This document shows positions 13,791 to 56,478 of a stretch of DNA of 64,000 nt, piece by piece. The position numbers were made by a program, and so were the translations under genes. The stretch is from Nitrosopumilus sp. Lineage in GTDB: Archaea; Thermoproteota; Nitrososphaeria; Nitrososphaerales; Nitrosopumilaceae. The first letter of the stretch is position 1; every line of letters begins with the position of its first letter. The notes below the pieces were generated by a model. It did no database searches, was not told the origin of the DNA, and was given only the letters and a program-made list of their open reading frames with translations. The stretch spans positions 1,376,001-1,440,000 of the forward strand of contig OZ244651.1 of assembly GCA_965218695.1 (NCBI GenBank). The letters are read 5' to 3'.

Positions 13791-13824
13791 GATGTGCCCT
13801 GCCCATGTCACTTGGAAATGGAAT

Positions 13825-15369
13825 GTATGAATTCACCTGCCCCTTATATCAGTCGACCAACTTCTTCGGCCACGCTCTTGCCATGTGCCCTCCACGTGAG
13901 GACGCACGTGACAAAATCTGCAAGGCGCTTCATGGCCTTGGAGCCGCCCTTGGTCTGCCCGCTTATCTTGCGGAACACCACCAGGTAGCGCAGCGCCCTC
14001 TCGCTGGCGTTGTTTGTAGGCTCGACGCCGGGATGCTCCAGGAACGCAAACATGCGGTGCAGGTGCCTCTCGAGCTTGTCCAGCACCTTTTGCATGTCGT
14101 CATCGTTACCACCACCACCGGCATCGCGGTACCGGTCAAGCACGTCCTGCATGGTGCGGTTCATCGTATGCCGCAGCTGTGGCGAGCGCGCCTCCTGCGC
14201 GGCCAGCAGTTTTGCCCTCTCAAACACCCACTTGTGGTCCTCGTGGAGCTGCTGCCGCCGCCGCCGGACACGTTTGGTCTCGGGAGGCACGGCGCAGTAT
14301 TTTTCTGCCAGGTGCCTTGTCTGCCGGAGGTCGTGCGCCCAGCACGACTGGTGCATGCCGTCCTTGTCAAACCTGTCATATCCGGTGTACCCGTCAGTTA
14401 TCGCCACCCCGTCAAATTTGTCCATGGCATCGAGCATGAGCGTGGCCCTGCTCTGGCTGATGTTTATTGCGATGTTTTTGCCCGACTGTGCCACGTTTGC
14501 GTGTACCTTCTGGCCGTCGTTTCGCCAGCTGGTTTCGTCAAACCCGGCACAGTCAGAAGCCTCCACTTCCCCGAGGATCCTGCCTGCCTCGTGGCCCGAG
14601 GCGTCCCCGACGCGTGCCATGATGTTGTTGACGGTGGATCCTGCAAGCATAATGCCCGTTATGGAGCGCACCGCGACCGAGATTCCCTTGAGCGGCACCC
14701 GTGCCGCGCGCAGTTCTGAGACGAGTCCGACCATGCCCTTGCCGAAGTTGCCCCGCCGCGGCAGGTCGTTTGGAGCATCTTCCCTGCGGCCGCATGAGCC
14801 GCATACTGCAGTCTCCACGCGGTGCCGCGTCTCGCACGCAGTCACCCTGATGTCCGTGATGTCCCGCACGCGCGGACTGCCAATCGCCATCCGGCCGCCG
14901 CCGCCGCCGCACCCGCATTCCGGGAGCACCGGCACCCGCCTCCTGCCCGACTTCCTGCGCCCGAACCTGTGGGATACGGTCCTTTCCGGGTCGTGGGGGC
15001 GCGACGCCCCCGCGTGTCCCTTTCTTCCCCCGCGCTTGGATTTGCCCTCCTTTTCCTGTTTTTTTGCCCGCTCCCTCTTCTGGGCCTTCCATTCCAGGGA
15101 TTCAGATGAGGGCGGCGTGTTGGGGTTTGTATAGTATGTCATGAGGCGTTCGCTGTACCCCAAGGCCCTTTCAAGACGTTCTATCCTGCCAAGTGCCTTC
15201 TCAAGATCGGATTTGAGGGTGGCAATCTCCCGGTTCCGTGCTAGGAGTTCCTCTTTTAGCTGGTCCCTGCTCATGTGCCGTGAATTTACCATGTAAAGTG
15301 ATGTGTATTGCCAGCATATGGATCAGTATGATCATTTTTTTGTGACAGGAAGGACAGGTGAATTCATAC
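13825..15369 (-). mobile_element. IS66-family element type A, copy 1 (single ORF, ISBst12-like)
   Basis: IR GTATGAATTCACCTG at both ends; 8-bp TSD AATGGAAT (13817-24 / 15370-77). Confidence 0.93.
13844..15292 (-). CDS. IS66 family transposase (type A)
   Basis: Coiled coil, Zn ribbon, FDETSW, TDGY, CWAH, PTNNASERALR. Confidence 0.93.
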   Translation of the reverse strand: MVNSRHMSRDQLKEELLARNREIATLKSDLEKALGRIERLERALGYSERLMTYYTNPNTPPSSESLEWKAQKRERAKKQEKEGKSKRGGRKGHAGASRPHDPERTVSHRFGRRKSGRRRVPVLPECGCGGGGGRMAIGSPRVRDITDIRVTACETRHRVETAVCGSCGRREDAPNDLPRRGNFGKGMVGLVSELRAARVPLKGISVAVRSITGIMLAGSTVNNIMARVGDASGHEAGRILGEVEASDCAGFDETSWRNDGQKVHANVAQSGKNIAINISQSRATLMLDAMDKFDGVAITDGYTGYDRFDKDGMHQSCWAHDLRQTRHLAEKYCAVPPETKRVRRRRQQLHEDHKWVFERAKLLAAQEARSPQLRHTMNRTMQDVLDRYRDAGGGGNDDDMQKVLDKLERHLHRMFAFLEHPGVEPTNNASERALRYLVVFRKISGQTKGGSKAMKRLADFVTCVLTWRAHGKSVAEEVGRLI

Positions 15370-15800
15370 AATGGAATGCAGCTAAGCGAAATGTGCTTTG
15401 ATCTAGGCAAAATCTGACAAGAATGCAAGCAGATCAATAAGGGTACGGCCCTATGGTTTTTGTTGTCTAGACAAAAAACCAAGCAGGGCCGCGATCTACT
15501 GAACAATCCAAGAATATATCAAGATGTCGCAAGCGGCATGAAAAACATGCTTGCCTGCGCCAACACGTCAAACAGGTACAATGCGGTATTTGGAACAGAC
15601 GATCTAAATCACGGCATGCTGAGGGGAGCCACCATGGATTCGTCCGTAGGCGGGTGCGCAAACGCGGTAAAGCGCACGCACTGCGACGCTCCCTCCGACA
15701 GGTGGCATGCATCGGCAATCAAGGGGATGGAGCAGGGCACGGTTCAGCGCGCATTCGAAGAAATGGTGGCAGTGCAACTTGACACATTCAAAAAACTGGG

Positions 15801-17441
15801 ATAACTGCATAGTTTTTTGATCAAATGTTGAACTCCATGCCTACGCGCGTCTATGCAGTTTTTTGACGTGGAGCCAGGCCCTCGCGCAGGATCGTGCCAA
15901 GATCATCTCCCCTTGCCTTGCATGTCTGCTTGATGCTCATCAGCGTGGCAATGGCATCTGCACCCTTCTTTGACCTGCTCCCGTTGCTGTTCTTGCGCAG
16001 GATGACGCACGGCCTGATGGCCCGCTCTGCCCGGTTGTTGTGGTATTCGACGCCGTCTGTCTCCAGAAACGCAAACAGGTGGCCTTTTTCCCGCACCAGC
16101 CTCTTGCGCATCCTGTTGCAGTGCTTGCAGTCGCGGTCCTTTTCGAGCCTGCCGATAAGTGACGCGATACGACGATCCAGCCTCTTCTTTGCGGCAAGCG
16201 CGTCTGTCCCTCCCGGAACGGCGCCGTCGATGTGCGAGTCCCACAGTATCGCGCGCAGCGTCCTTGCGTGACGCTTGTAGTCGTAGCCGGGATTCTTGTA
16301 TTTCAGGGTGTCCTTGATGTCCCGGGCGTAATGAAGGTGGCACTTTTGGTGTTCGGATCCGATGACGTTCCACGCGGCCCACGAGTCAGACGTGACGCAT
16401 CCCGGGTAGTCCTTGCCGAGCATCTTTTTTGGAACCTTCGAGTTCCTGTGGCGGTGCACCTCGTAGATTACGGCGTACCTGGCTACAGCCACCCACAGCC
16501 AGTAGTTCGTGCCGTCGACGCGCCAGATTGTCTCGTCCCCGTTTATCGCAGGCGAGTTTCTTACCTCCTCCTTGATCTTCTCGTACAGCGGCCCGAGCTC
16601 CCGGGCCATCCTGCACACCATGCGGTTTATCGCAGATTCCGTGATTCTTGCCGAGTACATCATCATGACAATATTGCATATTCTGAGGTCTGACATGCCG
16701 TGCAGCCTGAGGATGACCATCATTATCATAAAGTTGATCCCGTACCTGGAGTTTGGCAGTGCCAGCGGAGTCCTGCCGGACACGGTCCTCTTGCAGTTCC
16801 TGCAACGCCTTCTCTTTACTGTCACCTTGATGTGCTTTAGTTCCGTCTTGGCAGCCTCCCTTACCACCTTTGTGTACGTGGATACGCACTCGGAGAGGTC
16901 GGAGCTGCCGCAGTTGTCGCACGTGTGGGGATCTGCCGTCTCCTCTGCGTCTATTCTTTCAGGACGCGCAAGGCCCGTGCGTTTGTGGTCACTTGGCTTG
17001 CCCTTGGCCTTGCCCTTGCCCTTTGCGCGGCGCCGGGTACTGCCGGTCTTTTTGTCCGGTTTTGCGCCGATGCTCCTTGCAACGGCAGCCGATATGATGC
17101 CCTTTGCCTCCTGCAACTCTGCCGTGAGATCCTGGATCTGTTTGAGGGCGGCAGCGTAAAGATCAGCGAGTTTGGCCATCTGCCGGTCTTTTTCGGCCAT
17201 CTGCCGGTCTTTTTCGGCCATCTGCTCTGCCATCACACCCACTTTTTCCTCCAGTTCTGCAATCTTTGACTCGGAATTATCATCAGACATATGCAAACCG
17301 TGGGCAACAATGATCTAAAAATTAGGACGGAGAGAAAAACTCGATCAAGTGATCAAAAATAGTTTTAAAAAATTAGACAGACGCGGATTTTCTGATTGTA
17401 GATATGGAGTTCAACATTTGATCAAAAAACTACACAGATAC
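15801..17441 (-). mobile_element. IS66-family element type B nested in ISH3-A
   Basis: ~38-bp IR containing TAGTTTTTTGATCAAATGTTGAACTCCAT; 8-bp TSD AAACTGGG (15793-800 / 17442-49). Confidence 0.92.
15851..17296 (-). CDS. IS66 family transposase (type B)
   Basis: GDETIW, SDSW, QKCHLH, HNNRAERAIR; QMAEKDR heptad repeat. Confidence 0.92.
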   Translation of the reverse strand: MHMSDDNSESKIAELEEKVGVMAEQMAEKDRQMAEKDRQMAKLADLYAAALKQIQDLTAELQEAKGIISAAVARSIGAKPDKKTGSTRRRAKGKGKAKGKPSDHKRTGLARPERIDAEETADPHTCDNCGSSDLSECVSTYTKVVREAAKTELKHIKVTVKRRRCRNCKRTVSGRTPLALPNSRYGINFMIMMVILRLHGMSDLRICNIVMMMYSARITESAINRMVCRMARELGPLYEKIKEEVRNSPAINGDETIWRVDGTNYWLWVAVARYAVIYEVHRHRNSKVPKKMLGKDYPGCVTSDSWAAWNVIGSEHQKCHLHYARDIKDTLKYKNPGYDYKRHARTLRAILWDSHIDGAVPGGTDALAAKKRLDRRIASLIGRLEKDRDCKHCNRMRKRLVREKGHLFAFLETDGVEYHNNRAERAIRPCVILRKNSNGSRSKKGADAIATLMSIKQTCKARGDDLGTILREGLAPRQKTA

Positions 17442-18407
17442 AAACTGGGCAAATTCCCAAAAGAAGGACTGGACATCGCAATCGACATGCACCTCATACC
17501 GCGTTATGACCGGGCACCCGGAGGGGAGCTGACCCGTTCCAAATACAAAAACGGAACCACGTATTTTGAGCGTTACATGACAGTCCAGTGCGTAAACGAC
17601 AAGATGCGCATGGTCCTTGCAGCATCATACCTCAAAAGGCTCGAATTCGTGCCTGATTACGTGGATGCAGTCCTCAAGACCATGGCAGGGATGGGCATCA
17701 GGATCCGCCTGGCGCGGAATTCTTCTCAGTCGACACGATAAGCAGGCTGCGGGCACGGCGTAAGGTACCTGATGCCGCAGGAACACGCCCAACGTGCACT
17801 GCTTGACCGGGAATTCTTCTCAGTCGACACGATAAGCAGGCTGCGGGCAAACGGCGTAAGGTACCTGATGCCGTGCAGGAACACGCCCAACGTGGTGGAA
17901 GCCCTGCAGGATTTTGCACAAGGAAAGAGGGAAAGGATCTCAACAAACGTGATTGAGAACAACCAGGGCTCCGTCGAATATTCCATGATAATAACTGAAA
18001 GAAAAAACGCCAAAGACCCTGATGTCCCGGAAGAGAAATACATCGGGTTTGCAACAAACCACCCCACAATCAAGACGGAGGCTTATGCCAAAAGATGGGG
18101 AATAGAGACCGGGTACGGTAAAATCGAGGAGTGCAGGGCCAAGACGCGGATTTCGGACATGGAATCGCGGATGTTGTGTTTTTACTATTCCCTAACATTG
18201 TACAATGAATGGATAATCGTCAGGGCAATGCTTTCTGACGGTACCGAAAGGCAGAGTGTCATGACCATGCTCACGTTCAAGGTGCAGTTGGAATCACTCC
18301 TCATACGCCAGTCCAAACCGCCTACCTGATCTCAGATGAGGCACTTTTCGCTTAGCTGGAATGGCTCAAAAACTTATAGATGACCGGCCCTCTCTTAAAA
18401 TCTGAAA

Positions 18408-19118
18408 TTGTCTGCTGCCACAGGATCACCCAAAAACAACAGCGCAACCATTCCCGGAAAACTCATAGTGGTCGAGGGCATTGACGGCTCCGGCAAGTCC
18501 ACCCAGCTCCGCCTGCTTGAGCAGTGGCTGCGGTATGACGGGTTTGAGGTGTTCAGGACCGAGTGGAACTCCTCGGACATGGTCCGCTCCATCACCTCCA
18601 AGGGAAAAAAGAAGGAACTGCTTGTCCCTACCACGTTCAGCCTTCTCCACGCAACCGATTTTGCCGACCGGTTTGAGAGGAACATCCTGCCGTTGCTACA
18701 TGCAGGATACTTCGTCCTTGCCGACAGGTACATCTACACTGCGTATGCAAGGGATGCAACACGCGGGTGCGATCCCAACTGGATAAGGCACGTCTACAAC
18801 TTTGCAATAAAACCTGACATTACATTCTACTTTCGGGTGCCTCTTGATGTCGCGATGGACAGAATCCTTTCTGGCAGGCCGAAGATAAAATTTTACGAGG
18901 CAGGCATGGATCTGCATCTTGCCAAGGACTCTTACGAGAGCTTTCGGATGTTCCAAAGCAGGATAATCGCCCAGTACGAGGCGATGAGCCAGCGGGAGAA
19001 CTTTTGCATCATGGATGCCACCGCCCCTATTCCAAAACAGCAGCAGCTGATGAGAGACGAGGTGCGACGGCTTCTGCCAGAAGAGACAGAGGGGCAGACA
19101 CGCGCGGAGGCTTCCTGA
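18408..19118 (+). CDS. Thymidylate-kinase-like protein 1 (canonical P-loop); candidate polyphosphate kinase subunit
   Basis: EGIDGSGKST, ADRYIYTAYARD; tandem with a paralog and next to ppx once the IS stack is removed. Confidence 0.85.
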   Translation: MSAATGSPKNNSATIPGKLIVVEGIDGSGKSTQLRLLEQWLRYDGFEVFRTEWNSSDMVRSITSKGKKKELLVPTTFSLLHATDFADRFERNILPLLHAGYFVLADRYIYTAYARDATRGCDPNWIRHVYNFAIKPDITFYFRVPLDVAMDRILSGRPKIKFYEAGMDLHLAKDSYESFRMFQSRIIAQYEAMSQRENFCIMDATAPIPKQQQLMRDEVRRLLPEETEGQTRAEAS

Positions 19119-19853
19119 TTGGCAGATCCGACAGGCGTGGTAACCAACAGAACGCCAGAGTGGTACGGCACAAAGAGATCCGGCGGCATTCCATACCTGA
19201 AGGACCTGGAGATCTCCGGACGGCTTATCGTCATTGAGGGGCCGGACGCATCGGGCCGGAGCACGCAGATCGAGCTGCTCACTGCAAAGCTTGAGGCAGA
19301 AGGATACGCGGTGCTTAACACGGGGCTAAACCGCTCTGAGATTATCAGCGAGGGAATCTTGGAGGCCAAGCGCAACGTCTCCCTGGGAAAACGGACGCTT
19401 GCCCTGTTTTATGCAGCCGACTTTGCAGATCAGCTGGAGCACAAGATTATTCCTGCACTCCAGTCAGGGCACGTAGTCTTGGCAGACAGATACATCTACA
19501 CCCTGATGGCCAGAAACACGGTCCGGGGAATCGCACGGAAGTGGTCAAGTGATCTGTACAGCTTTGCACTCGTGCCGGATCTGATCTTTTATATCGACGT
19601 GGACCCGTACGTCCTGGTTCACCGCGTATTTGCAAAGAGGCAGTACCTGGATCACTACGAGTCCGGCGCGGATCTTGGAATATCCGATGACATGTTTGAG
19701 TCGTTTATCAAATACCAGCAAAAGCTCGCAAGGGAGTTTAGGGTTCTCAAACAAAGGTACGACCTGAACGTGATCGACGGAAACCGCACAATCGAGCAGC
19801 TCAACGTGGCATTGGATGAACAGATCAACCTCTATCTCTCCAAGGCGTCATGA
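19119..19853 (+). CDS. Thymidylate-kinase-like protein 2 (altered P-loop GRST); candidate partner subunit
   Basis: EGPDASGRST, ADRYIYTLMAR; TTG start abuts the previous stop. Confidence 0.85.
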   Translation: MADPTGVVTNRTPEWYGTKRSGGIPYLKDLEISGRLIVIEGPDASGRSTQIELLTAKLEAEGYAVLNTGLNRSEIISEGILEAKRNVSLGKRTLALFYAADFADQLEHKIIPALQSGHVVLADRYIYTLMARNTVRGIARKWSSDLYSFALVPDLIFYIDVDPYVLVHRVFAKRQYLDHYESGADLGISDDMFESFIKYQQKLAREFRVLKQRYDLNVIDGNRTIEQLNVALDEQINLYLSKAS

Positions 19854-20097
19854 GCAGCGTACCGGCTGCTGCGTGCCATGAGGGGACGGCACCTGCAAAA
19901 CCAGACATACTGACATGTCTTGTCAGACACCTGCGATCGTCTCCTGCAACACGCATGGGGGGGAAGAGAGGAGTGTGCGAGTCTGCATCTGGGCCGCATT
20001 GCATCCGTGGGGCCGTGGCTGCAGGGTTTTAGCTTCAGCTATTTAGCTATGCCTATTTTTCCTCATCTATTTATAATATAACGGAGTTATTCTGAAC

Positions 20098-21498
20098 ATG
20101 GCTACAGAAAATCTTGACATGGATTATTCAAAGTATGATTTTAAGGACTCGACTGAGATGTATGTCCACCTCAGCAAGAAGGGCCTGACCAAGGAGACTG
20201 TAATAGGCATCAGCAAGATGAAGGATGAGCCGCAATGGATGCTTGATTTCAGGCTGCGGTCCTTTGAGATCTTCATGAAGAAGCCGATGCCTACGTGGGG
20301 CGGAAACCTGAGCGTTATTGACTTTCAAAACATCTACTATTACGCAAAGGCATCTGAAAAGACAGAAAAGAGCTGGGATGACGTTCCGGATAATGTCAAG
20401 AGTACGTTTGACAAGCTTGGGATTCCAGAGGCTGAAAAAAAGTTTCTTGCAGGCGTCGGTGCGCAGTACGAGTCGGAGGTAGTGTACCACAATCTGCGAG
20501 AAGACCTCCAAAAGCAGGGAGTCCTCTTTTTAGATACCGACTCTGCCCTGAAGGAGCAGCCTGAGATATTTAAGAAATATTTTGCAAAGGTCATTCCTCC
20601 GGAAGACAACAAGTTTGCGGCACTAAACAGCGCAGTCTGGAGCGGAGGCTCGTTCATCTATGTTCCGCCCGGCGTGAAAGTTGACATGCCCCTGCAGGCG
20701 TACTTTAGAATTAATGCCGAGAACATCGGCCAGTTTGAGCGAACCCTGATAATAGTTGACGAAGGCGCAGAAGTTCACTATATCGAGGGGTGCACGGCCC
20801 CGGTATACTCTTCAGAATCACTCCACTCTGCCGTAGTAGAACTGGTGGCACACAAGGATGCACGTCTGAGATATACCACCATTCAGAACTGGAGCAACGA
20901 TGTCTATAACCTGGTCACAAAGCGTGCGTATGCATACGAGGGGGCAACAGTGGAATGGATCGACGGAAACATCGGAAGCAAGCTTACCATGAAGTATCCC
21001 GGAGTCTATCTCATGGGCGAGAGGGCATACGGCGAGACGCTCTCCATTGCATTTGCCGGCAAGGGACAGCACCAGGATACCGGTGCCAAGATGGTACACC
21101 TTGCGCCAAACACAACCTCCAAGATCACATCCAAGTCTGTCAGCAGAATGGACGGAAGATCCACATACCGGGGGCTCCTCAATGTAGCAAAGGGGGCCAC
21201 AGGCGTAAAGTCCACGGTAAGGTGCGATGCATTGCTGCTAGACGATACCTCCAAGACCGACACGTATCCCTACATGGAGATCAACCAGGAGGATGCCACC
21301 GTCACCCACGAGGCGACGGTCGGAAAGATCGGCGACGAGCAGATATTCTATCTGATGAGCAGGGGGTTCAGCGAGGAGGAGGCGCTGTCACTGATAGTCA
21401 ACGGGTTCATGGAACCGTTCACAAAGGAGCTGCCAATGGAGTACGCAGTAGAGCTAAACAGACTCATAAAACTAGAGATGGACGACTCCGTCGGCTAG
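20098..21498 (+). CDS. sufB: Fe-S cluster assembly protein SufB
   Basis: [24 protein letters not shown]. Confidence 0.97.
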
Positions 21499-21518
21499 TC
21501 TTGGCGTTTTGATCGGCA

Positions 21519-22925
21519 ATGTCCCAAGAAACTCTTTCAAGAATCAATACCAGCCATATTGATGAGATCTCCTCGTCTGGCCATGAGCCCGAGTGGCTCA
21601 ACGACTATAGGAGAAACTCCCTGTCCATCTACAACAGCCTGCCCATCGAGATGTCGCCACTCTACAACAAGTACACCGACGCAAAAAAGATGGATCCGGA
21701 CCAGGTGTTCCTCTCTACGTCCACTGCCGGAACGGTTCCGGGATTCCTTGACAGGCGGCTGAGGGAACTCGAAGACAAGACGTGCATAATTCAGATCGGG
21801 ACAAACATTCACCGGATAAGTATTCCAGAATCCCTAAAGTCCAAGGGGCTGATCGTCTCCTCGATATCAGATGCCATTCAGAACAACCCTGATCTTGTGA
21901 GGACTGCCTTGGACTCTCTAAACTCCGGGGAGGACAAGTTTACAGCACTCAACAACGCAGCATTCAACTCAGGCATGTTCATACACATTCCGCGCAACCT
22001 TGTCCTGGAAGAATCCATCCACCTTTTGGTGTGCCTGTCAGAAGATGGCCGCTCGACAATCTCCCGGAATGTCATCCTCGCAGGCCAGAGCAGCAAGGCC
22101 ACGATAGTCCAGGAGGTCTACTCCCCCAAGTCAGACGCCCGGCAGCAGCAGGCATACCTTGAGACGCTAAACATAACTGCCGGTGAAAACTCACACCTGG
22201 ACTTTACCACCCTGCAGATGATGGATCAGCACTCTGTAAACTTTTCAACACGGCGGACGGACCTTGCAAGGGACGCCACTGTAAACTGGTATTCGGGCCT
22301 CTTCGGCTCCATGCTGTCCAGATACAAGATAGACTACTATCTCAACGGGTCCGGTTCTTCTGCCAACGACTCTGAGGTGATATTTGGCAACCGCGACCAG
22401 TCCTTTGACATTCAGACCAGCGTGAACCATCAGAGTCAGGCAACCGAGGCAAGGGTGGTCGAAAAGTCAATTCTAAGGGACAGATCAAAGTCGCTCTTCA
22501 AGGGGATGATAAGAATCATGGAGAATGCCGCAAAATCAAACTCATTCCTGTCTGGACGATCCATCCTTCTGGACAAGGATGCAAAGTCAGACGCGATTCC
22601 GGGACTTGAGATATTCACAAACGACGTAAAGGCGACACACTCTGCATCCGTTGCACAGATTGACGAGGAGCAGCTCTTCTATCTCAAGACCAGGTGCCTT
22701 AGCCACGAGGAGGCAGAAAGAACCATCGTGGAGGGATTCTTGGAGCCCCTCTCACGAAAGATGTCCTTTCAGGTAAGGGCGTGGATTGCATATCTTATAG
22801 AGTCCAAATGGGAGAACAGGGAGCTTGGCATCAATACAGACGAGGAACTTGCAAAATTCGTAGAGATCGAGGAGACGCGCTACAACGAGGATGCAGAAGT
22901 TGAGCAGCACTACAAGTACCGGTGA
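21519..22925 (+). CDS. sufD: Fe-S cluster assembly protein SufD
   Basis: PGLEIFTNDVKATHSASV, QLFYLKTR. Confidence 0.93.
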   Translation: MSQETLSRINTSHIDEISSSGHEPEWLNDYRRNSLSIYNSLPIEMSPLYNKYTDAKKMDPDQVFLSTSTAGTVPGFLDRRLRELEDKTCIIQIGTNIHRISIPESLKSKGLIVSSISDAIQNNPDLVRTALDSLNSGEDKFTALNNAAFNSGMFIHIPRNLVLEESIHLLVCLSEDGRSTISRNVILAGQSSKATIVQEVYSPKSDARQQQAYLETLNITAGENSHLDFTTLQMMDQHSVNFSTRRTDLARDATVNWYSGLFGSMLSRYKIDYYLNGSGSSANDSEVIFGNRDQSFDIQTSVNHQSQATEARVVEKSILRDRSKSLFKGMIRIMENAAKSNSFLSGRSILLDKDAKSDAIPGLEIFTNDVKATHSASVAQIDEEQLFYLKTRCLSHEEAERTIVEGFLEPLSRKMSFQVRAWIAYLIESKWENRELGINTDEELAKFVEIEETRYNEDAEVEQHYKYR

Positions 22926-23239
22926 TTCATGTGGCAGAATGGATTAGAGCCTGCGGCATCAAGGATGTTCCTGAGGGCCAGCTCTTCGGGTTTGTGCACG
23001 GTGAGAAGAGAATACTGCTTGCCAATGTGCGGGGGAGCATACATGCAACCGACCTTGTATGCACGCATGCAGATGCGGATCTCTCGACGGGCTTTCTTAG
23101 CGATGAGGGGGTGCGGTGCCCGCTGCACCTTTCCGTGTTTAATCTGGATACCGGGGAGCCGCAGAACCCGCCTGCAGAGGACTCCCTCAGGGTGTACAAT
23201 GTTAAAATAGACGGCGACTCGATTTACGTGGAGGTTTGA
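22922..23239 (+). CDS. Rieske-type ferredoxin
   Basis: CTH...CPLH Rieske ligands. Confidence 0.92.
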   Translation: MIHVAEWIRACGIKDVPEGQLFGFVHGEKRILLANVRGSIHATDLVCTHADADLSTGFLSDEGVRCPLHLSVFNLDTGEPQNPPAEDSLRVYNVKIDGDSIYVEV

Positions 23240-23240
23240 G

Positions 23241-24482
23241 ATGCAGAGGACACAGTTGTTTGAGAATTTGAGAAAGGACTTTCCAATACTGCAGCGCACC
23301 GTCAGGGAGGACAAACCCCTTGTCTATCTGGACAATGCATCCACCACGCAGAAGCCCAGACAGGTCATTGATGCCATAACTGACTACTACCAAAACTACA
23401 ACGCAAACATTCATCGTGCCGTATATGCTCTGGCCGAGGAGGCGACCCAGGCATACGAGGCGGCCCGGGACAAGGTGGCAGACTTTGTCAACGTCAAAAA
23501 CCGGGAGGAGATCATCTTTGTCCGTGGTACCACCGAGGCCATCAATCTGGTTGCGTATGCATGGGGCAGGAGCCATGTGGGCAAGGGGGACGTGATTGTC
23601 ACCACCGAGTACGAGCACCACAGCAACATCGTCCCCTGGCAGCTTCTTGCACAGGAGAAGGGAGCAAGGCTGGAGTATATCCGGATGGATGATAACGGGG
23701 AACTGATCCTTGATGATCTTGACCGGTATCTTGCCACCGGAAGGGTCAAGATTGTAGCGTTTAGCCTGATGTCCAACGTACTTGGAACAATAACTGATGC
23801 ACAGAGAATAATCAAGAGGTGCCAAGAGTCCAACGTCCTGACGCTGGTAGACGGAGCACAGGCAGTACCGCACATGCCAGTAGACTTGCAGAAGATCGGA
23901 TGCGACTTCTTCGCCTTCTCCGGCCACAAGATGCTCGGACCCACCGGAATCGGGGCGCTGTGGGTCAGAAAATCCGTTCTGGAGACCATGAGTCCGTTCC
24001 ATGGAGGGGGGGACATGATACGCGAGGTACACAAGTACGAGACCACCTGGAACGATCTCCCATACAAGTTCGAGGCAGGCACCCCAAACATCGCCGACGT
24101 CGTAGGGCTTGGGGCCGCAATCGACTATCTTACCGGAGTGGGAATGGCAAATGTGAGAAGACACGAAGTCGAGCTTACCGGATACGCACTGGAGAGGCTC
24201 TCGGAGGTGAAGGGACTCCACATCTATGGCACCATGGACGTATCAAAGCGCGGAGGCGTCATCTCGTTTAACTTTGCCGATGTGCATCCGCACGATGTGG
24301 CCCAGATAATGGACTCAGAGGGAATCGCAATCCGTTCCGGACACCACTGCGCCCAGGTGCTCATGGAGAGGATGAATGTTGCAGCAACATCCCGTGCCAG
24401 CTTTTACATATACAACACCAGGGAGGACGTTGATGCCCTGGTAAGGTCGTTAAACACTGTAGCGAGGCTCTTCAAGCTATGA
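23241..24482 (+). CDS. sufS: Cysteine desulfurase SufS
   Basis: YLDNASTTQKP, SGHKM, RSGHHCA. Confidence 0.96.
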   Translation: MQRTQLFENLRKDFPILQRTVREDKPLVYLDNASTTQKPRQVIDAITDYYQNYNANIHRAVYALAEEATQAYEAARDKVADFVNVKNREEIIFVRGTTEAINLVAYAWGRSHVGKGDVIVTTEYEHHSNIVPWQLLAQEKGARLEYIRMDDNGELILDDLDRYLATGRVKIVAFSLMSNVLGTITDAQRIIKRCQESNVLTLVDGAQAVPHMPVDLQKIGCDFFAFSGHKMLGPTGIGALWVRKSVLETMSPFHGGGDMIREVHKYETTWNDLPYKFEAGTPNIADVVGLGAAIDYLTGVGMANVRRHEVELTGYALERLSEVKGLHIYGTMDVSKRGGVISFNFADVHPHDVAQIMDSEGIAIRSGHHCAQVLMERMNVAATSRASFYIYNTREDVDALVRSLNTVARLFKL

Positions 24483-24913
24483 GCAGCAACGCTGACATAT
24501 ACCACGAGATGATAATCGACTACTCTAGGAACCCTGTAAACTATGGCAAGATGGAGGATCCTGATGTCACCTTTCACGACTCAAACCCGCTGTGCGGCGA
24601 CAGCATCGACATCGACATGAAGATCGACGGCCAGACCGTATCTGATATCAAATTCCACGGAAAGGGGTGTGCTATATGTATGGCCTGCTCATCTGTACTC
24701 ACCGAGATAACAAAAGGCAAGAGCATTGAGGATGTGCGAAAGATCGACAAGAACGACGTGTTGGGGGAGCTTGGGCTTGAACACCTACAGGCCGTGCGGA
24801 TAAAATGCGCCCTGCTCTCACTCAAAGTGCTCAAGTCTGCTCTCTACACGTATCTTGTGGAGCATGTCCGGGACGCAGACGGGCTCAAGGAAGAGGCCGC
24901 CAACCTGTACTGA
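24479..24913 (+). CDS. sufU: SufU/IscU scaffold
   Basis: NPLCGD, GCAI, RIKCALL. Confidence 0.92.
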   Translation: MSSNADIYHEMIIDYSRNPVNYGKMEDPDVTFHDSNPLCGDSIDIDMKIDGQTVSDIKFHGKGCAICMACSSVLTEITKGKSIEDVRKIDKNDVLGELGLEHLQAVRIKCALLSLKVLKSALYTYLVEHVRDADGLKEEAANLY

Positions 24914-24914
24914 T

Positions 24915-25262
24915 ATGAGCGGATTTACCCCCTCAACTCCCATCCCACTGCAGATAAGGAAGATAATCTTTGAGCGGTTCAACGACGTTGAGGCCCGGTT
25001 TACCAACGACGAGATCTTTGAGATACTTGTAAAGAATGGCGATATGGATCCGTCATGGGTGATCGATGACGTGGAGCACATGTTTAATGACATGTGCGAC
25101 TCCGGACTTGCCAGAAACATTGCGCAGAACTTTACGACCATCTGGCTGAAACTCTTTGATCCCGTCGAGGGCGTCCACTGCAACTCCTGCAACCTTGATG
25201 TCCATATGGGCGGCTCCGAGGACAGGACATGCCCAAATCCGGACTGCGGGGCACCTATTTAG
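24915..25262 (+). CDS. Conserved hypothetical protein with C-terminal Zn ribbon
   Basis: ATG right after the sufU stop; CNSC...CPNPDC. Confidence 0.75.
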   Translation: MSGFTPSTPIPLQIRKIIFERFNDVEARFTNDEIFEILVKNGDMDPSWVIDDVEHMFNDMCDSGLARNIAQNFTTIWLKLFDPVEGVHCNSCNLDVHMGGSEDRTCPNPDCGAPI

Positions 25263-26463
25263 ACCTGTATCTAGTGGCCGCATCCTCAAGCGCCCTGATC
25301 ATTGGCAGCTTTTTTCCCGTAAGGTAGAGCACCAGCGCCCCGCCTGCGGTACTCGTGTGGTTGATCTTGTCGGCCAGCCCGTACCGCTTTAGCGCGGTGG
25401 TCAGGTGTCCTCCGCTGACGATGGTTGTAGCCATCGAGTTTGCAACCGCGCTGAGCAGTGCCTTTGTGCCGTAACTGAATCTCTCCTTTTCAAAGAATCC
25501 TGCCGGCCCGCTGATAAACACGGTTCCCGCGCCTGCAATCAATCTTGAATAATACTCCACAGTCTTTGGACCAAGATCATATATCTTGTCATCCCTGCTC
25601 ATCTCCCTGACATCCATCTCCATCCTGTCGCCGTCCTTGTCCACTGCGATATCCACCGGGGTCACAAACACGTCCGGATACTCGCCAATCAGGGCATGCG
25701 CCTTTGCGACAACCTCGTCTTCCCTTCTGATTCCAAGCGGTGACTTGATTCTTGCCTGCGCGCGCATGAAGACGTTCCCTATGAGTCCTGTCAGCAGGAT
25801 GTAGTCTGCCCGGCCGTTCTGAATCAGCATCTTGATTGCCTCGAGCCTGTCCATCACCTTGGAACCGCCAAGAACAACCACGTGCGGCGCCTTGGCCACA
25901 GTCATTATCTCGTCGAGGTTTCTGACCTCTTTTTCGACTATCCTTCCTGCACATGCAGGCAGAACCTGCGGAAATCCCACGATCGACGGATGGGAGCGGT
26001 GCGCGCTGGGAAATGAATCCAGTATGCAGAGATCAAAGAGCTTGGAGAGCCTGGAGACCATGATTGTCTTGGCCGCATTCTTCGGCACAAACTCGTAATT
26101 TTCCTCAGCACACAGTCTGAGGTTGTCCAAAAACAGGATGTCGCCGTCCTGCATGTTCTTTATGGCACATTGCGCAGCCTGGCCAATCACGTCCTCTACA
26201 TATTCTATCTTCCTGCCCATCATCTCTTCTAGAACCTTTGCATGCATGGCCATTCCGCAGTAGTCCTTGTTTCCAACCCTGCCCTGGTGCGATGCGATGA
26301 CCACCTTGGAGTCCTTGAGCGACTTGATAGTCTCTATGGTCTCCTCGATTCTTTTGGTGCCCAAAATCTCCATCGTCGTGGGATCGATTGGGCAGTTCAT
26401 ATCCACTCTCAGAAAGACGGTCTTGGATTTTAGGTCAAAGTCGTCCAGCGTGAGAACCTTCAC
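25255..26463 (-). CDS. pgk: Phosphoglycerate kinase
   Basis: RVDMNCP, SHQGR, LGGSKV, STAGGA. Confidence 0.96.
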   Translation of the reverse strand: MKVLTLDDFDLKSKTVFLRVDMNCPIDPTTMEILGTKRIEETIETIKSLKDSKVVIASHQGRVGNKDYCGMAMHAKVLEEMMGRKIEYVEDVIGQAAQCAIKNMQDGDILFLDNLRLCAEENYEFVPKNAAKTIMVSRLSKLFDLCILDSFPSAHRSHPSIVGFPQVLPACAGRIVEKEVRNLDEIMTVAKAPHVVVLGGSKVMDRLEAIKMLIQNGRADYILLTGLIGNVFMRAQARIKSPLGIRREDEVVAKAHALIGEYPDVFVTPVDIAVDKDGDRMEMDVREMSRDDKIYDLGPKTVEYYSRLIAGAGTVFISGPAGFFEKERFSYGTKALLSAVANSMATTIVSGGHLTTALKRYGLADKINHTSTAGGALVLYLTGKKLPMIRALEDAATRYRSK

Positions 26464-26510
26464 AGCGATCGTACTATTTACTCGGATAAATTCGTTGAGC
26501 CGTCCCCAGC

Positions 26511-28055
26511 GTATGAATTCACCTGCCCCTTATATCAGTCGACCAACTTCTTCGGCCACGCTCTTGCCATGTGCCCTCCACGTGAGGACGCACGTGACAA
26601 AATCTGCAAGGCGCTTCATGGCCTTGGAGCCGCCCTTGGTCTGCCCGCTTATCTTGCGGAACACCACCAGGTAGCGCAGCGCCCTCTCGCTGGCGTTGTT
26701 TGTAGGCTCGACGCCGGGATGCTCCAGGAACGCAAACATGCGGTGCAGGTGCCTCTCGAGCTTGTCCAGCACCTTTTGCATGTCGTCATCGTTACCACCA
26801 CCACCGGCATCGCGGTACCGGTCAAGCACGTCCTGCATGGTGCGGTTCATCGTATGCCGCAGCTGTGGCGAGCGCGCCTCCTGCGCGGCCAGCAGTTTTG
26901 CCCTCTCAAACACCCACTTGTGGTCCTCGTGGAGCTGCTGCCGCCGCCGCCGGACACGTTTGGTCTCGGGAGGCACGGCGCAGTATTTTTCTGCCAGGTG
27001 CCTTGTCTGCCGGAGGTCGTGCGCCCAGCACGACTGGTGCATGCCGTCCTTGTCAAACCTGTCATATCCGGTGTACCCGTCAGTTATCGCCACCCCGTCA
27101 AATTTGTCCATGGCATCGAGCATGAGCGTGGCCCTGCTCTGGCTGATGTTTATTGCGATGTTTTTGCCCGACTGTGCCACGTTTGCGTGTACCTTCTGGC
27201 CGTCGTTTCGCCAGCTGGTTTCGTCAAACCCGGCACAGTCAGAAGCCTCCACTTCCCCGAGGATCCTGCCTGCCTCGTGGCCCGAGGCGTCCCCGACGCG
27301 TGCCATGATGTTGTTGACGGTGGATCCTGCAAGCATAATGCCCGTTATGGAGCGCACCGCGACCGAGATTCCCTTGAGCGGCACCCGTGCCGCGCGCAGT
27401 TCTGAGACGAGTCCGACCATGCCCTTGCCGAAGTTGCCCCGCCGCGGCAGGTCGTTTGGAGCATCTTCCCTGCGGCCGCATGAGCCGCATACTGCAGTCT
27501 CCACGCGGTGCCGCGTCTCGCACGCAGTCACCCTGATGTCCGTGATGTCCCGCACGCGCGGACTGCCAATCGCCATCCGGCCGCCGCCGCCGCCGCACCC
27601 GCATTCCGGGAGCACCGGCACCCGCCTCCTGCCCGACTTCCTGCGCCCGAACCTGTGGGATACGGTCCTTTCCGGGTCGTGGGGGCGCGACGCCCCCGCG
27701 TGTCCCTTTCTTCCCCCGCGCTTGGATTTGCCCTCCTTTTCCTGTTTTTTTGCCCGCTCCCTCTTCTGGGCCTTCCATTCCAGGGATTCAGATGAGGGCG
27801 GCGTGTTGGGGTTTGTATAGTATGTCATGAGGCGTTCGCTGTACCCCAAGGCCCTTTCAAGACGTTCTATCCTGCCAAGTGCCTTCTCAAGATCGGATTT
27901 GAGGGTGGCAATCTCCCGGTTCCGTGCTAGGAGTTCCTCTTTTAGCTGGTCCCTGCTCATGTGCCGTGAATTTACCATGTAAAGTGATGTGTATTGCCAG
28001 CATATGGATCAGTATGATCATTTTTTTGTGACAGGAAGGACAGGTGAATTCATAC
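26511..28055 (-). mobile_element. IS66-family element type A, copy 2
   Basis: Same IRs and protein as copy 1; different 8-bp TSD TCCCCAGC (26503-10 / 28056-63). Confidence 0.93.
26530..27978 (-). CDS. IS66 family transposase (type A, identical protein to 13844-15292)
   Basis: Identical translation in the ORF track. Confidence 0.93.
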   Translation of the reverse strand: MVNSRHMSRDQLKEELLARNREIATLKSDLEKALGRIERLERALGYSERLMTYYTNPNTPPSSESLEWKAQKRERAKKQEKEGKSKRGGRKGHAGASRPHDPERTVSHRFGRRKSGRRRVPVLPECGCGGGGGRMAIGSPRVRDITDIRVTACETRHRVETAVCGSCGRREDAPNDLPRRGNFGKGMVGLVSELRAARVPLKGISVAVRSITGIMLAGSTVNNIMARVGDASGHEAGRILGEVEASDCAGFDETSWRNDGQKVHANVAQSGKNIAINISQSRATLMLDAMDKFDGVAITDGYTGYDRFDKDGMHQSCWAHDLRQTRHLAEKYCAVPPETKRVRRRRQQLHEDHKWVFERAKLLAAQEARSPQLRHTMNRTMQDVLDRYRDAGGGGNDDDMQKVLDKLERHLHRMFAFLEHPGVEPTNNASERALRYLVVFRKISGQTKGGSKAMKRLADFVTCVLTWRAHGKSVAEEVGRLI

Positions 28056-28059
28056 TCCC

Positions 28060-29306
28060 CAGCTAAGCGAAATGTGCTTTGATCTAGGCAAAATCTGACA
28101 AGAATGCAAGCAGATCAATAAGGGTACGGCCCTATGGTTTTTGTTGTCTAGACAAAAAACCAAGCAGGGCCGCGATCTACTGAACAATCCAAGAATATAT
28201 CAAGATGTCGCAAGCGGCATGAAAAACATGCTTGCCTGCGCCAACACGTCAAACAGGTACAATGCGGTATTTGGAACAGACGATCTAAATCACGGCATGC
28301 TGAGGGGAGCCACCATGGATTCGTCCGTAGGCGGGTGCGCAAACGCGGTAAAGCGCACGCACTGCGACGCTCCCTCCGACAGGTGGCATGCATCGGCAAT
28401 CAAGGGGATGGAGCAGGGCACGGTTCAGCGCGCATTCGAAGAAATGGTGGCAGTGCAACTTGACACATTCAAAAAACTGGGCAAATTCCCAAAAGAAGGA
28501 CTGGACATCGCAATCGACATGCACCTCATACCGCGTTATGACCGGGCACCCGGAGGGGAGCTGACCCGTTCCAAATACAAAAACGGAACCACGTATTTTG
28601 AGCGTTACATGACAGCCCAGTGCGTAAACGACAAGATGCGCATGGTCCTTGCAGCATCATACCTCAAAAGGCTCGAATTCGTGCCTGATTACGTGGATGC
28701 AGTCCTCAAGACCATGGCAGGGATGGGCATCAGGATCCGCCTGGCGCTGCTTGACCGGGAATTCTTCTCAGTCGACACGATAAGCAGGCTGCGGGCAAAC
28801 GGCGTAAGGTACCTGATGCCGTGCAGGAACACGCCCAACGTGGTGGAAGCCCTGCAGGATTTTGCACAAGGAAAGAGGGAAAGGATCTCAACAAACGTGA
28901 TTGAGAACAACCAGGGCTCCGTCGAATATTCCATGATAATAACTGAAAGAAAAAACGCCAAAGACCCTGATGTCCCGGAAGAGAAATACATCGGGTTTGC
29001 AACAAACCACCCCACAATCAAGACGGAGGCTTATGCCAAAAGATGGGGAATAGAGACCGGGTACGGTAAAATCGAGGAGTGCAGGGCCAAGACGCGGATT
29101 TCGGACATGGAATCGCGGATGTTGTGTTTTTACTATTCCCTAACATTGTACAATGAATGGATAATCGTCAGGGCAATGCTTTCTGACGGTACCGAAAGGC
29201 AGAGTGTCATGACCATGCTCACGTTCAAGGTGCAGTTGGAATCACTCCTCATACGCCAGTCCAAACCGCCTACCTGATCTCAGATGAGGCACTTTTCGCT
29301 TAGCTG
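28060..29306 (+). mobile_element. ISH3-family element type A, copy 2 (intact ORF, no matching TSD)
   Basis: Same IRs as 15379-18358; flanks GTCCC vs ACATT do not match. Confidence 0.9.
28141..29277 (+). CDS. ISH3 family transposase (type A)
   Basis: IAIDMHLIPRY, LLDREFF, RWGIETGY DDE motifs. Confidence 0.9.
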   Translation: MLSRQKTKQGRDLLNNPRIYQDVASGMKNMLACANTSNRYNAVFGTDDLNHGMLRGATMDSSVGGCANAVKRTHCDAPSDRWHASAIKGMEQGTVQRAFEEMVAVQLDTFKKLGKFPKEGLDIAIDMHLIPRYDRAPGGELTRSKYKNGTTYFERYMTAQCVNDKMRMVLAASYLKRLEFVPDYVDAVLKTMAGMGIRIRLALLDREFFSVDTISRLRANGVRYLMPCRNTPNVVEALQDFAQGKRERISTNVIENNQGSVEYSMIITERKNAKDPDVPEEKYIGFATNHPTIKTEAYAKRWGIETGYGKIEECRAKTRISDMESRMLCFYYSLTLYNEWIIVRAMLSDGTERQSVMTMLTFKVQLESLLIRQSKPPT

Positions 29307-29952: not shown

Positions 29953-30266
29953 CGTGAAACTGGGCCAAAAACACGGTGTCACTACAAACGTGGTGTTCTT
30001 TAAGGACGTCCTCCGTGCGTACGGGCAAAACGCATGCAGGTCTGAACCACTGGAGAACTGGATTCTTGACAACCAGCACAAGGAACTGGAACCGCCGCAC
30101 GAAGACTAGTGGTTAGATTACATTCAGATCATAAAGTGAACTTGGGGGAAAGGAGTATTCCTGGACGTCTGCGCGGCAAGCCGTAGAACTGCAATGATTG
30201 AAAATGTTCTGATTTTACGCATATTTACGCCTGGGTTTGAGGAAGGCCTGGGTGCATGCTCGATGT

Positions 30267-38254: not shown

Positions 38255-39142
38255 ACGTTTGAAACTGTAACCGTCGCAGTTTCTCCCAAGTTTGGCAAGT
38301 TTGAGATGGATATGTCGGTATTGCCCATCTTGGCATTCCATGACAAACCAACTGAGTATGGAATACAATAGTTGCCGGTGCTTGCTCTCACTCCAGTGGA
38401 GCAGAATGCATTGGATGCATACGCGTTGACGTCTAGTGGCGGATTGTCGCCTATGTGTTTCCATTCATAAAATGACAGGCCGGGAAGATAAAATCCATAT
38501 CCGCTCTTGATCAATTCGTTCCTTTCGTCATGCGAAACACAGACTTTTTCCCGATCTGAGTTTCTAATCAGATAATGCTTGTCGGCATCGCATGGATTTG
38601 TCAGTAGGTCCTCATAAAATGCCGCAAACTCAACAAACGACATGGGTTCAAGCACAGTGCACTCGTCCCCGATATGCCAGTTCTCTCCAGCCAGGCTGTA
38701 CCCGACAACGTATCTGTCCCCGGCCTTTACGGCGTGCGCATTGATCACACTCACGGAATCCGATTCCAGTGGGAATTCCTTGTTGCCATAAATTACTTCG
38801 TCAATGGTAAAAGCGGTGGTTGCCCGACTCGAGAGAAGAAAATCCCCATTGAATTCGGGAGGATCATAAATTTTCTCCTCGGAGGAGACAACGGTAACAG
38901 TCACGATTGCAACCCTTTCCCCGTCATATCCGAATAAGGCGTCTGGGTGATAGCACACGGTTGCGTTTGCCTCCTGACTGAAGACCATGCCATTGAGACC
39001 AAGCAACAGACTTGCAAAAAAGACAGCTCTGACTGATTGCATCATCTTGCCCTGACGGCCAGCATTGCGGGCGGTGTCCATGGAGTTGATTATCAGCGGA
39101 CTTGTAAATAACTGCCATGCCCAACCCTGCCGGCCTGCATCA

Positions 39143-55791: not shown

Positions 55792-56478
55792 AAAATCTGC
55801 GTTTTAGTGCGTCTGATAGTGTATGTAAAAAATGCTTGTCTGCAGTGTTTTGGGTACCAATGATCCGGTAATCACGTGGAATCAACAAGTCCTCAAATGG
55901 TTTTTCAGGATCTGTAGTTGGGATTTGCAAATTGTTGTATTCCAAGGCGGTAAATAACTGGCCAAAGGCCCTGTCAATATTTGCACGGTTAAATTCATCA
56001 ATTACAAGCCAGATTCCCCTATATTTTGAATTTTTTCCATTAATTTTTTTTCCAGCAAAAATTCTTTTCTTGGAATTGCTAGTTCCATCGACCCAATTTT
56101 GTGCCACGGTGTCAGTCACACACCCTTTCTGAATTGAATATATTATTTGGCCATCTTGATCAAGTTTTGGGTAGATTCCCCCAATCACATCTTGAGTTGT
56201 CCAGTCAGCAGTTGCAGTATGAACTTGAGCAAAATATCCTTTAAATTCCCTCCAGCCTAGGCGGGGCAAGATGGTAGCAAGATGAGTTTTTCCAGAACCT
56301 ACTGGCCCAACAAGAAGAATATTTTTTCCAGCAATCAAGGTACTAAAAATTTGATTTAGGGTATCATCATCTATCAAAATTTCTTCCTTGATAGATTTTC
56401 TTGCTTCTTCAAGAGATTTAGTGGATGGGAAGGGCAGTGCCACATCTTCAAAAACATCATTGGGTTTTTCCATTTCTA

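Follow-up and report, generated by a model that had tools for sequence, protein, structure and literature searches.

Two copies of one IS66-type insertion sequence, in the same orientation, abut the left tips of two copies of one ISH3-like element in a 64,000-nt stretch of archaeal DNA (hereafter the window; Table 1), and the question raised by this arrangement is whether the IS66-type element (IS66-A) seeks out ISH3 ends or whether the two elements meet there for another reason. The host is an ammonia-oxidising archaeon (2.6 Mb, 20% insertion sequences, 99.99% complete by marker genes) whose genome holds four TBP genes and an archaeal AmoA. We consider it probable that both junctions are collisions at a landing spot upstream of promoters that is shared by the two elements, and that they do not reflect recognition of ISH3 by IS66.

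Table 1. Features at the two IS66/ISH3 junctions (positions in the window).
Feature	Position	Strand	Remarks
IS66-family element copy 1 (IS66-A, family F1)	13825..15369	-	1545 bp
8-bp target duplication AATGGAAT of IS66 copy 1	13817-13824 + 15370-15377		
ISH3-like element copy 1 (ISH3-A, family F11)	15379..18358	+	
Nested IS66-family element (family F3)	15801..17441	-	1641 bp; 481-aa ORF 15851-17296
BRE/TATA-like box (A-run then TTATAG)	18367..18379	+	reads rightwards towards ORF 18408-19118
TATA-like box ATAAATT (plus-strand letters)	26486..26492	-	putative promoter of minus-strand ORF 25255-26463
IS66-family element copy 2 (IS66-A)	26511..28055	-	1545 bp, identical to copy 1
8-bp target duplication TCCCCAGC of IS66 copy 2	26503-26510 + 28056-28063		
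ISH3-like element copy 2 (F11)	28060..29306	+	intact, 1247 bp; 378-aa ORF 28141-29277

Identity of the elements

The transposase of IS66-A copy 1 is encoded by a single ORF (482 aa, 13844-15292, minus strand) and scores 101.8 bits against Pfam PF03050 (cut-off 23.1) and 170.8 bits against the NCBIfam IS66 model (NF033517), the latter just below the cut-off of 180. The canonical tnpA-tnpB-tnpC set is missing (there is only this one long ORF in 1545 bp), and we take IS66-A to fit the single-ORF IS66 subgroup (the ISBst12-type group, an ISfinder name), with whose members it shares an IS66-type DDE domain, an 8-bp duplication, a single transposase ORF of ~480 aa and an element length of 1.5 kb. 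The promoter-linked target preference described below may set it apart from the family, since our literature search (at the level of listings and abstracts) found no report of target preference for IS66 elements. Perfect 8-bp duplications flank 22 of the 23 full-length copies in the genome (modal length 8), the remaining one showing a single mismatch. The best NCBIfam match of the ISH3-like element (ISH3-A) is ISH3 (NF033541, E = 1e-37, 129.6 bits, under the cut-off of 225), and Pfam returns only the generic PF01609; its target duplication is 5 bp long (GAATG at copy 1, and the 5-nt halves GTCCC and ACATT on two inverted copies), the value for the ISH3 family.

Structure and independence of the two junctions

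At copy 1 the second AATGGAAT is followed by one G and then by the inverted repeat CAGCTAAGCGAAA at 15379, and the 5-bp duplication of the ISH3-like element, GAATG (15374-15378 and 18359-18363), overlaps the 8-bp IS66 duplication. The sequence-only reading had described the IS66 duplication as stopping 1 bp short of the ISH3 repeat and overlapping GAATG, and the coordinates (15370-15377, 15374-15378) agree with it. This ISH3-like copy carries an internal 84-bp duplication and is interrupted at 15800/17442 by a third insertion sequence, the nested IS66-family element, whose own duplication AAACTGGG lies at 15793-15800 and 17442-17449; the joint from 15792 to 17442 in short-read contigs shows eight shared letters at this insertion. 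At copy 2 the order of arrival is ISH3 first and IS66 second, on the promoter side, because TCCCCAGC consists of 4 nt of flank followed by the outermost 4 nt of the ISH3 inverted repeat, and the order previously proposed for this copy is thereby borne out. ISH3-like copy 2 is bordered by GTCCC on the left and ACATT on the right, and the reciprocal halves are found on the ISH3-like copy at genome position C1:1532902-1534148, which indicates a ~129 kb inversion between these two copies; it is because of this inversion that copy 2 is without a duplication of its own.

The two IS66 insertions are separate events, since each copy has its own perfect 8-bp duplication (AATGGAAT and TCCCCAGC differ), and the outer flanks of the two copies are unrelated, which upholds the initial description of same-orientation copies at ISH3 left tips that do not form a duplicated composite. 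That both junctions nevertheless stem from such a composite unit, or from an assembly artefact, is hardly credible: a 1976-bp stretch, made up of IS66 and 422 bp from the start of ISH3, is indeed 99.5% identical between the two loci, but the two junctions differ by 5 nt, and the outer junctions are crossed by contigs of three sequencing runs (of one study, possibly the assembly's own source) that run from unique DNA as far as 13852 in IS66, and from 18330 in ISH3 into unique DNA. The IS66/ISH3 junction, lying between two repeats, is unbridged by these short-read contigs. The locus is present in four runs of one study (three with all sampled words, one with 63%), and no RNA run is listed among the sequencing runs that carry it. 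No empty-site joints were found at either insertion sequence in the contigs of the runs carrying the locus, the sole joints there stemming from further ISH3 copies, in which neither the nested element nor the 84-bp duplication is present.

Placement of IS66-A across the genome

On the strength of the two junctions, it had been proposed that IS66 is recruited to ISH3 left ends. The genome-wide census speaks against this: ISH3-A is a neighbour at only 2 of the 29 IS66 sites (2/23 full-length copies), most copies thus lying away from ISH3 ends. Recruitment by the sequence of the ISH3 end fares no better, as IS66 equally abuts the ends of unrelated IS types that share no end sequence. The 'same left tip' is a coincidence, given that the promoter faces the left end of ISH3 at copy 2 and its right end at copy 1 (over all sites, the box lies beside the left end of ISH3-A seven times and beside the right end six times). 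The placement is, all the same, far from random, since a uniform random model gives P ~4e-6 for two or more of the 29 IS66 sites lying no further than 10 bp from any of the 13 left ends of ISH3-A.

In 18 of 23 two-flank sites, the IS66 end is 18-19 nt distant from a BRE/TATA-like box that reads away from the element (P = 6e-10). By a crude criterion (at least six A/T in 7 nt), a box is found at -27 to -24 in 23/52 IS66 flanks versus 9.5% of 157,116 random non-IS positions, and with flanks having an insertion sequence within 40 bp removed it is found in 19/39 (background 0.13 for the same flanks; P = 1e-7 before correction for the 32 positions scanned). The aligned flanks read A-A then TTAwAw, which is the BRE-then-TATA order away from the insertion sequence, and a 93% subfamily of IS66-A obeys the spacing in four of its five copies. 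Furthermore, a start codon that opens a frame of at least 80 aa is situated at 46-52 nt in 9 of the 18 box-bearing non-IS flanks, as compared to 8.1% of random positions (P = 4e-6). Over the whole genome, the box frequency measured from the first ATG in 1243 ORFs is highest at -29 to -23 (21% vs ~7%). The spacing is kept even where the opposite flank offers 60-163 nt free of ORFs (7/10 sites), free space being defined by the lack of stop-to-stop frames of at least 80 aa, a measure that is noisy on the promoter side and is given for the opposite flank only. The orientation of IS66 relative to the box shows no significant bias (left end 7, right end 12; P = 0.36), and three full IS66 copies (C1:1586150, C1:1652617 and C1:1986049) have no box in either flank. 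All spacing evidence comes from this one genome. When 40 other genomes were searched with IS66-A DNA, 39 gave no match and one (G002) a 33-nt match with E = 4e-4, and a search of five relatives with the transposase protein returned three distant copies (29-30% identity), all in one genome.

Six other families in the same genome show boxes at offsets of their own (P values uncorrected): F2 (IS5-like, 24/42, P = 5e-6), F12 (IS5-like, 10/17, P = 7e-5), F24 (IS6/IS1-like, 9/12, P = 3e-4), F6 (14/28, P = 4e-4), F11 (ISH3-like, 13/19, P = 1.6e-3) and F14 (IS481-like, 6/14, P = 0.018). Besides IS66-A and the ISH3-like element, the box-linked set thus comprises five families (IS5-like, IS481-like and IS6/IS1-like, with one not typed), and no box pattern was seen in families F4, F5 and F9. 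In all seven families, whose duplications measure 5, 8, 9 or at least 12 bp, the promoter-side cut falls 6-10 nt from the box.

The family offsets reproduce the spacing at both junctions of the window once the sites are rebuilt. In the rebuilt empty site of copy 1, where the intergenic region measures only 79 nt, 11 nt separate the box from the IS66 duplication and 10 nt separate it from that of ISH3; at copy 2 these distances are 10 nt for IS66 and 9 nt for ISH3 (original duplication GTCCC), and the GTG start of its ORF lies 23 nt from the edge of the box.

A probable shared landing spot upstream of promoters

The best reading of these observations is a shared landing spot, whether the promoter complex guides elements to it or selection filters the insertions. 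Under such a rule, IS66-A would take an 8-bp target beginning ~10-11 nt upstream of a BRE/TATA box whose gene reads away from the element, which would leave ~48 nt between the IS66 terminus and the start codon of this leaderless-type gene. For the ISH3-like element the rule would be the same, with a target of 5 bp at ~9-10 nt from the box, and its cut site would therefore fall inside the 8-bp IS66 target. At copy 1, IS66 was probably first and ISH3 then inserted between IS66 and the promoter, an order needed by the promoter model, as is the order at C1:37229. The likeliest candidates for the mark of the landing spot are a TBP/TFB-bound, bent promoter or accessible DNA at its upstream edge; the promoter suggests itself because the promoter-side cuts of at least four unrelated transposase kinds fall 6-10 nt from the box, irrespective of the length of the duplication. 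An element placed upstream of the BRE does the promoter no damage, so that copies at this position are also those that survive. We propose, tentatively, that the initiation complex (TBP/TFB on BRE/TATA) or its DNA geometry could be a landmark common to at least four unrelated kinds of transposase; with the same reserve, these kinds would be IS66, ISH3/IS4-like, IS5-like, IS481-like and IS6/IS1-like, all cutting 6-10 nt upstream of the box.

Approximately 8 of roughly 19 box-guided IS66 events share their promoter with another insertion sequence, where ~1 would be expected, so that IS-occupied promoters are chosen ~8-fold more often than uniform choice predicts, and ~8-10 times as often as unoccupied ones (an estimate that depends on an assumed promoter number); for at least two IS66 at ISH3-occupied promoters, P = 0.007-0.025 with 1000-2000 promoters assumed. 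This excess means either that some promoters are far more permissive than others or that IS ends make a contribution of their own. Of the safe-harbour idea put forward in the sequence-only reading, a passive effect may survive, on account of this ~8-fold excess, and the part that invoked recognition of ISH3 is unsupported. Guidance of IS66 by the promoter of ISH3's own transposase was also considered and rejected, as it would place IS66 ~34 nt inside ISH3, which is not the observed position; the A/T box nearest to the ISH3 transposase ORF is ~53-59 nt inside the ISH3 tip.

Alternative explanations of the placement

It could be argued that IS66-A recognises and inserts at the tips of IS elements, whether at the ISH3 left end specifically or, by way of bound transposase, nicks or bent repeats, at IS ends in general. 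Twelve of the 52 IS66 termini do lie within 15 bp of a true end of another IS, from five or more unrelated types (IS5-like, IS481-like, IS6/IS1-like and IS66-type elements, besides ISH3-A), none of them beside an internal breakpoint or nested in an IS body, which gives 12 tip and 0 body contacts versus 26 and 97 for the other families together (Fisher P = 6e-8). Moreover, the preference for IS-occupied promoters would be expected from end recognition, and at two sites (C1:200954 and the partial copy C1:1154893) IS66 sits beside the right end of the IS5-like F2 without an external box, the sole A/T run at the right distance lying inside the F2 end. The distances to partner ends also cluster at 4-5 and 12-13 nt, but these values are explained by the family offsets. 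Against recognition of ends stand, besides the small share of sites that involve ISH3-A, the partners themselves: no sequence common to their ends (at least five families) was seen by eye in the aligned ends, and 11 of the 12 partner termini come from box-linked families, which hold 172 of the 702 non-IS66 termini (P = 1.8e-6), although F0, F3, F4, F5 and F9 hold many more. About half of the IS66 copies are without an IS neighbour and keep the same distance to the box, and tip-contact rates with all partners are similar in F2 (10/57), F11 (5/26) and F24 (3/17) as compared to 12/52 for IS66-A. We consequently regard recognition of IS ends as quite improbable.

Alternatively, insertion could be near-random and without any targeting, with selection sparing only those copies that lie upstream of promoters or beside existing insertion sequences. 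A position upstream of the BRE is expected to be harmless, the boxes always read away (as selection would leave them), the rebuilt intergenic region at copy 1 is short, and the excess co-occupancy fits the re-use of tolerated sites. The box peak is, however, only a few nucleotides wide with background level beyond it, the offsets are specific to the family, and the free space on the other side goes unused at the 7/10 sites given above. The pattern is furthermore absent from three families of this genome (F4, F5 and F9), and IS66 is never nested in an IS body, where termini of other families are common (97). We view selection alone as unlikely, and retain the shared promoter-upstream landing spot as the probable explanation of both junctions.

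Relation to known systems

Integration at or upstream of Pol III genes by way of TFIIIB or Pol III is known from Ty3, Ty1 and the Dictyostelium element TRE5-A. The likeness to the present case lies in an initiation complex with TBP and a TFB-like factor, by which integration is positioned at a fixed distance; these are, in contrast, eukaryotic retroelements with demonstrated protein contacts, and a role of TBP/TFB in our archaeon is suggested by geometry alone. IS30, IS21 and IS911 target inverted repeats or the ends of other insertion sequences, and resemble the elements studied here in that IS copies abut IS ends within a few bp; they recognise their own or similar repeats, whereas the ends met by IS66-A are unrelated in sequence and have the neighbouring promoter in common.

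The closest bacterial parallel is found in the TnGBS, ISLre2 and ISKra4 groups with Mutator-like DDE transposases, whose insertions keep a fixed short distance to the promoter downstream of them, TnGBS inserting 15-17 bp upstream of sigma-A promoters (PMC3942029, citing Brochet 2009). They share with our elements a fixed distance upstream of a promoter that is left intact (18-19 nt in IS66-A, with six other families peaking too), and differ in using bacterial sigma-A promoters rather than an archaeal BRE/TATA box. They form one transposase superfamily (Mutator-like, p-MULT 3/4) with a sequence signature; the transposases considered here are IS66-, ISH3/IS4-, IS5-, IS481- and IS6/IS1-like, and so act like the TnGBS group without being members of it. 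The TnGBS group is also described as inserting mostly in one fixed orientation, in contrast to the 7 vs 12 (P = 0.36) of IS66 and the 7 vs 6 of the ISH3-like element. At the level of abstracts, no report of promoter- or TATA-guided insertion of insertion sequences in archaea was found (the archaeal ISH6 targets in table S2 of PMC3942029 may bear on this).

Implications

The account based on two events, in which IS66 seeks ISH3, is replaced by a rule with genome-wide support. If this rule is true, it would extend promoter-guided transposition, so far a matter of a few elements of bacteria and eukaryotes, to archaea and to relatives of IS66, ISH3, IS5 and IS481. It would then constitute an archaeal counterpart, spread over several families, of the targeting seen in Ty3/TFIIIB and TnGBS, with promoters acting as shared safe harbours. 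Should unrelated transposases indeed home to the upstream edge of promoters, the choice of target would be set by a feature of the host and not by each transposase. The rule would moreover offer a simple sequence criterion by which insertion sites may be predicted and promoters found, and would explain the tip-to-tip stacking of IS elements, as well as how a 2.6-Mb archaeal genome may consist of insertion sequences to 20% and yet retain 99.99% marker completeness.

Insertion sequences and the two IS66/ISH3-like junctions

The 2.63-Mb genome encodes an archaeal AmoA together with four TBPs, which marks the organism as an ammonia-oxidising archaeon, and its de novo catalogue of insertion sequences (37 families, numbered with the prefix F; 472 fragments, 317 full-length copies) covers 20.3% of the sequence. 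At two loci of the window an IS66-family element (IS66-A) directly adjoins an ISH3-like one, an observation of the sequence-only reading that is real and whose account of both junctions was borne out by end sequences, self-comparison and transposase domains. Within the window, 13825-15800 and 26511-28481 are 99.5% identical, with a single 5-nt gap at the junction; the 482-aa ORF of the 1545-bp element carries an IS66-type DDE domain, and the 378-aa ORF of its neighbour is nearest to ISH3 transposases (score under the curated cut-off). Copy 1 has AATGGAAT at both flanks, followed by one G and then by the 1247-bp neighbour with the repeat CAGCTAAGCGAAA, whose own 5-bp duplication (GAATG) overlaps that of IS66. 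Copy 2 is flanked by TCCCCAGC, and since the final four letters of this duplication are the initial four of the neighbour's repeat, IS66 was the second arrival there.

Features of the window (C1:1376001-1440000) and of other sites on the genome contig (C1)
Feature	Coordinates	Details
IS66 copy 1	13825-15369	1545 bp; inverted repeat GTATGAATTCACCTG
IS66 copy 2	26511-28055	1545 bp; inverted repeat GTATGAATTCACCTG
F3, IS66-family, nested within ISH3-like copy 1	15793-17449, including 8-bp duplication AAACTGGG	1641 bp
Internal tandem duplication of ISH3-like copy 1	17715-17798	84 bp; missing in consensus contigs
ISH3-like copy 2	28060-29306	flanks unmatched (GTCCC left, ACATT right)
Inverted ISH3-like copy	C1:1532902-1534148	~129 kb from copy 2, with the reciprocal flank halves; signature of inversion through recombination between both
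F6 inverted pair	30265-31558 / 36963-38256	1294-bp element; brackets ~5.4 kb
F2 (IS5-like) inverted pair	51258-52460 / 57964-59166	
Cluster of three elements	56476-61440	~1.1 kb each; 89-94% identity
Two ISH3-like copies, head to tail	C1:987640-990138	gap only 5 bp; either an IS dimer or a second copy inserted in the target duplication of the first
Two IS66 copies (one diverged, interrupted) flanking a single F2 copy	C1:196717-202504	near-identical 12-nt junctions, suggesting local duplication or recombination, not two independent hits

Genome-wide, BLAST recovered IS66 in 23 full-length copies, of which 18 show ≥99.3% identity and 5 ~93%; perfect 8-bp duplications flank 22 of the 23. The proposal that IS66 is recruited to ISH3 left ends does not survive this census: only the two window copies touch the ISH3-like element. 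The flanks of many others nevertheless lead straight into other repeats. Twelve of 52 IS66 termini were found within 15 bp of another element's true terminus and none of the 52 beside an internal breakpoint, as compared to 26 terminus contacts and 97 internal-breakpoint contacts among the 702 termini of all other families pooled (Fisher P = 6e-8). Besides the catalogued partner families, one further partner is a 3-copy element outside the catalogue; the partner end sequences, when compared, were unrelated to one another, and, measured from the IS66 terminus, the first base of the neighbour lies at distances that cluster around 4-5 and 12-13 nt.

A promoter box at fixed distance from the insertion point

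With all flanks listed, one flank of most IS66 sites was seen to hold an A/T-rich box between -26 and -19, counted from the terminus (23/52 flanks, as opposed to 9.5% among 157,116 randomly drawn non-IS positions; 18 of the 23 two-flank sites, P = 6e-10), the positional histogram showing a peak ~4 nt wide and background level beyond it. The box is likewise present in 19/39 flanks that have no other IS within 40 bp, versus 0.13 farther out in the same flanks; three IS66 copies have none in their flanks, and in two events beside F2 right ends the sole A/T run at the right distance lies inside the F2 end. Read away from IS66, the aligned flanks show A-A at positions 15-16 and TTAwAw at 20-25, which is the order BRE then TATA, directed away from the element. 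Start codons (ORFs ≥80 aa) lie 46-52 nt from the terminus in 9/18 box-bearing non-IS flanks (8.1% at random), and across the genome boxes are most frequent at -29 to -23 relative to the first ATG (21% versus ~7% background, 1243 ORFs ≥200 aa), a spacing of leaderless genes which indicates that many genes have promoters of this type. Taken together, the box, the BRE/TATA order and the start-codon spacing place IS66 just upstream of promoters, its terminus ~48 nt before the start codon.

Six further families share this association, each with its peak at a family-specific offset, while F4, F5 and F9 gave no peak in the same flank scan. Target duplications in the seven box-linked families (IS66 included) differ in length (5, 8, 9 and ≥12 bp), and once this length is subtracted every one of the seven has its promoter-side cut 6-10 nt from the box; in ISH3-like flanks, start codons are found at 41-51 nt. 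For the IS66-type families F0 and F3 the preference is for A/T-rich DNA in the 8-bp target, right at the point of insertion (33/47 and 22/33 flanks); unlike IS66-A, they may thus land in TATA-like boxes and not beside them.

Promoter boxes in the flanks of other families (P values without correction for the 32 scanned positions) and number of their termini contacted by IS66
Family	Type	Flanks with box	P	IS66 contacts
F2	IS5-like	24/42	5e-6	5
F12	IS5-like	10/17	7e-5	1
F24	IS6/IS1-like	9/12	3e-4	2
F6	not typed	14/28	4e-4	
F11	ISH3-like	13/19	1.6e-3	2
F14	IS481-like	6/14	0.018	1
F0	IS66-type			1 (15 bp inside the F0 tip)

Reconstruction of the window sites and alternative explanations

Removal of IS66 from copy 2 leaves ATAAATT, 9 nt, GTCCC and the ISH3 repeat, an arrangement that fits the ISH3 rule; the box is the promoter of the minus-strand ORF 25255-26463 (GTG 23 nt beyond it), and IS66 then took the 8 nt starting 10 nt past the box, thereby capturing 4 nt of the repeat. 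Copy 1 without both elements becomes a 79-nt intergenic site, in which a TTATAG upstream of ORF 18408-19118 follows 11 nt after the end of AATGGAAT and 10 nt after that of GAATG, so that each element fits its own offset to one promoter, now situated beyond the far side of the ISH3-like copy. The model would make IS66 the first arrival here and the ISH3-like element the later one; contigs of four sequencing runs (one study) contained no empty sites, and those of three runs confirmed the outer junctions. The same reconstruction holds for the IS66/F24 pair at C1:37229. At copy 2 the promoter is on the side of the ISH3 left end, at copy 1 on that of the right end, and all ISH3-like sites together divide into 7 left and 6 right; the left tip shared by the two loci is a coincidence. 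The reading in which IS66 seeks ISH3 gives way to a common landing spot upstream of promoters.

If IS66 chose uniformly among an assumed 1000-2000 promoters, at least 2 of its ~19 box-guided events would fall on the 13 promoters occupied by ISH3 with P = 0.007-0.025; ~8 of the 19 are at promoters that also carry another IS, against ~1 expected. Similar contact rates in other box-linked families (all partners counted: F2 10/57, F11 5/26, F24 3/17) show that this excess is general and not specific to IS66; it reflects either a small number of permissive promoters, or the selective safety of promoters at which an IS is already tolerated, or a contribution of the IS ends. Selection probably accounts for the fact that only insertions upstream of the BRE are seen. 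As the sole source of a sharp, family-specific spacing it is unlikely, given that 60-163 nt of free DNA on the other side are left unused in 7/10 sites.

Relation to known systems

A DNA search of 40 relatives, 24 of them congeneric (1.2-2.2 Mb where ≥90% complete), did not find IS66-A, and a protein search of 5 genomes gave only 3 distant relatives, all within one of them. Ty3, Ty1 and TRE5-A are known to insert upstream of promoters at a constant distance, in their case at Pol III genes. The bacterial elements TnGBS, ISLre2 and ISKra4 are described as inserting at a fixed 15-17 bp upstream of sigma-A promoters (PMC3942029). The elements studied here belong to none of these groups, from which they differ in transposase family and, in the case of IS66 and the ISH3-like element, by the lack of orientation bias; literature searches at the level of listings and abstracts gave no report of promoter-upstream IS insertion for archaea or for IS66. 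What makes the finding of interest is that several unrelated transposases obey the rule within a single genome; this points to a landmark on the side of the host.
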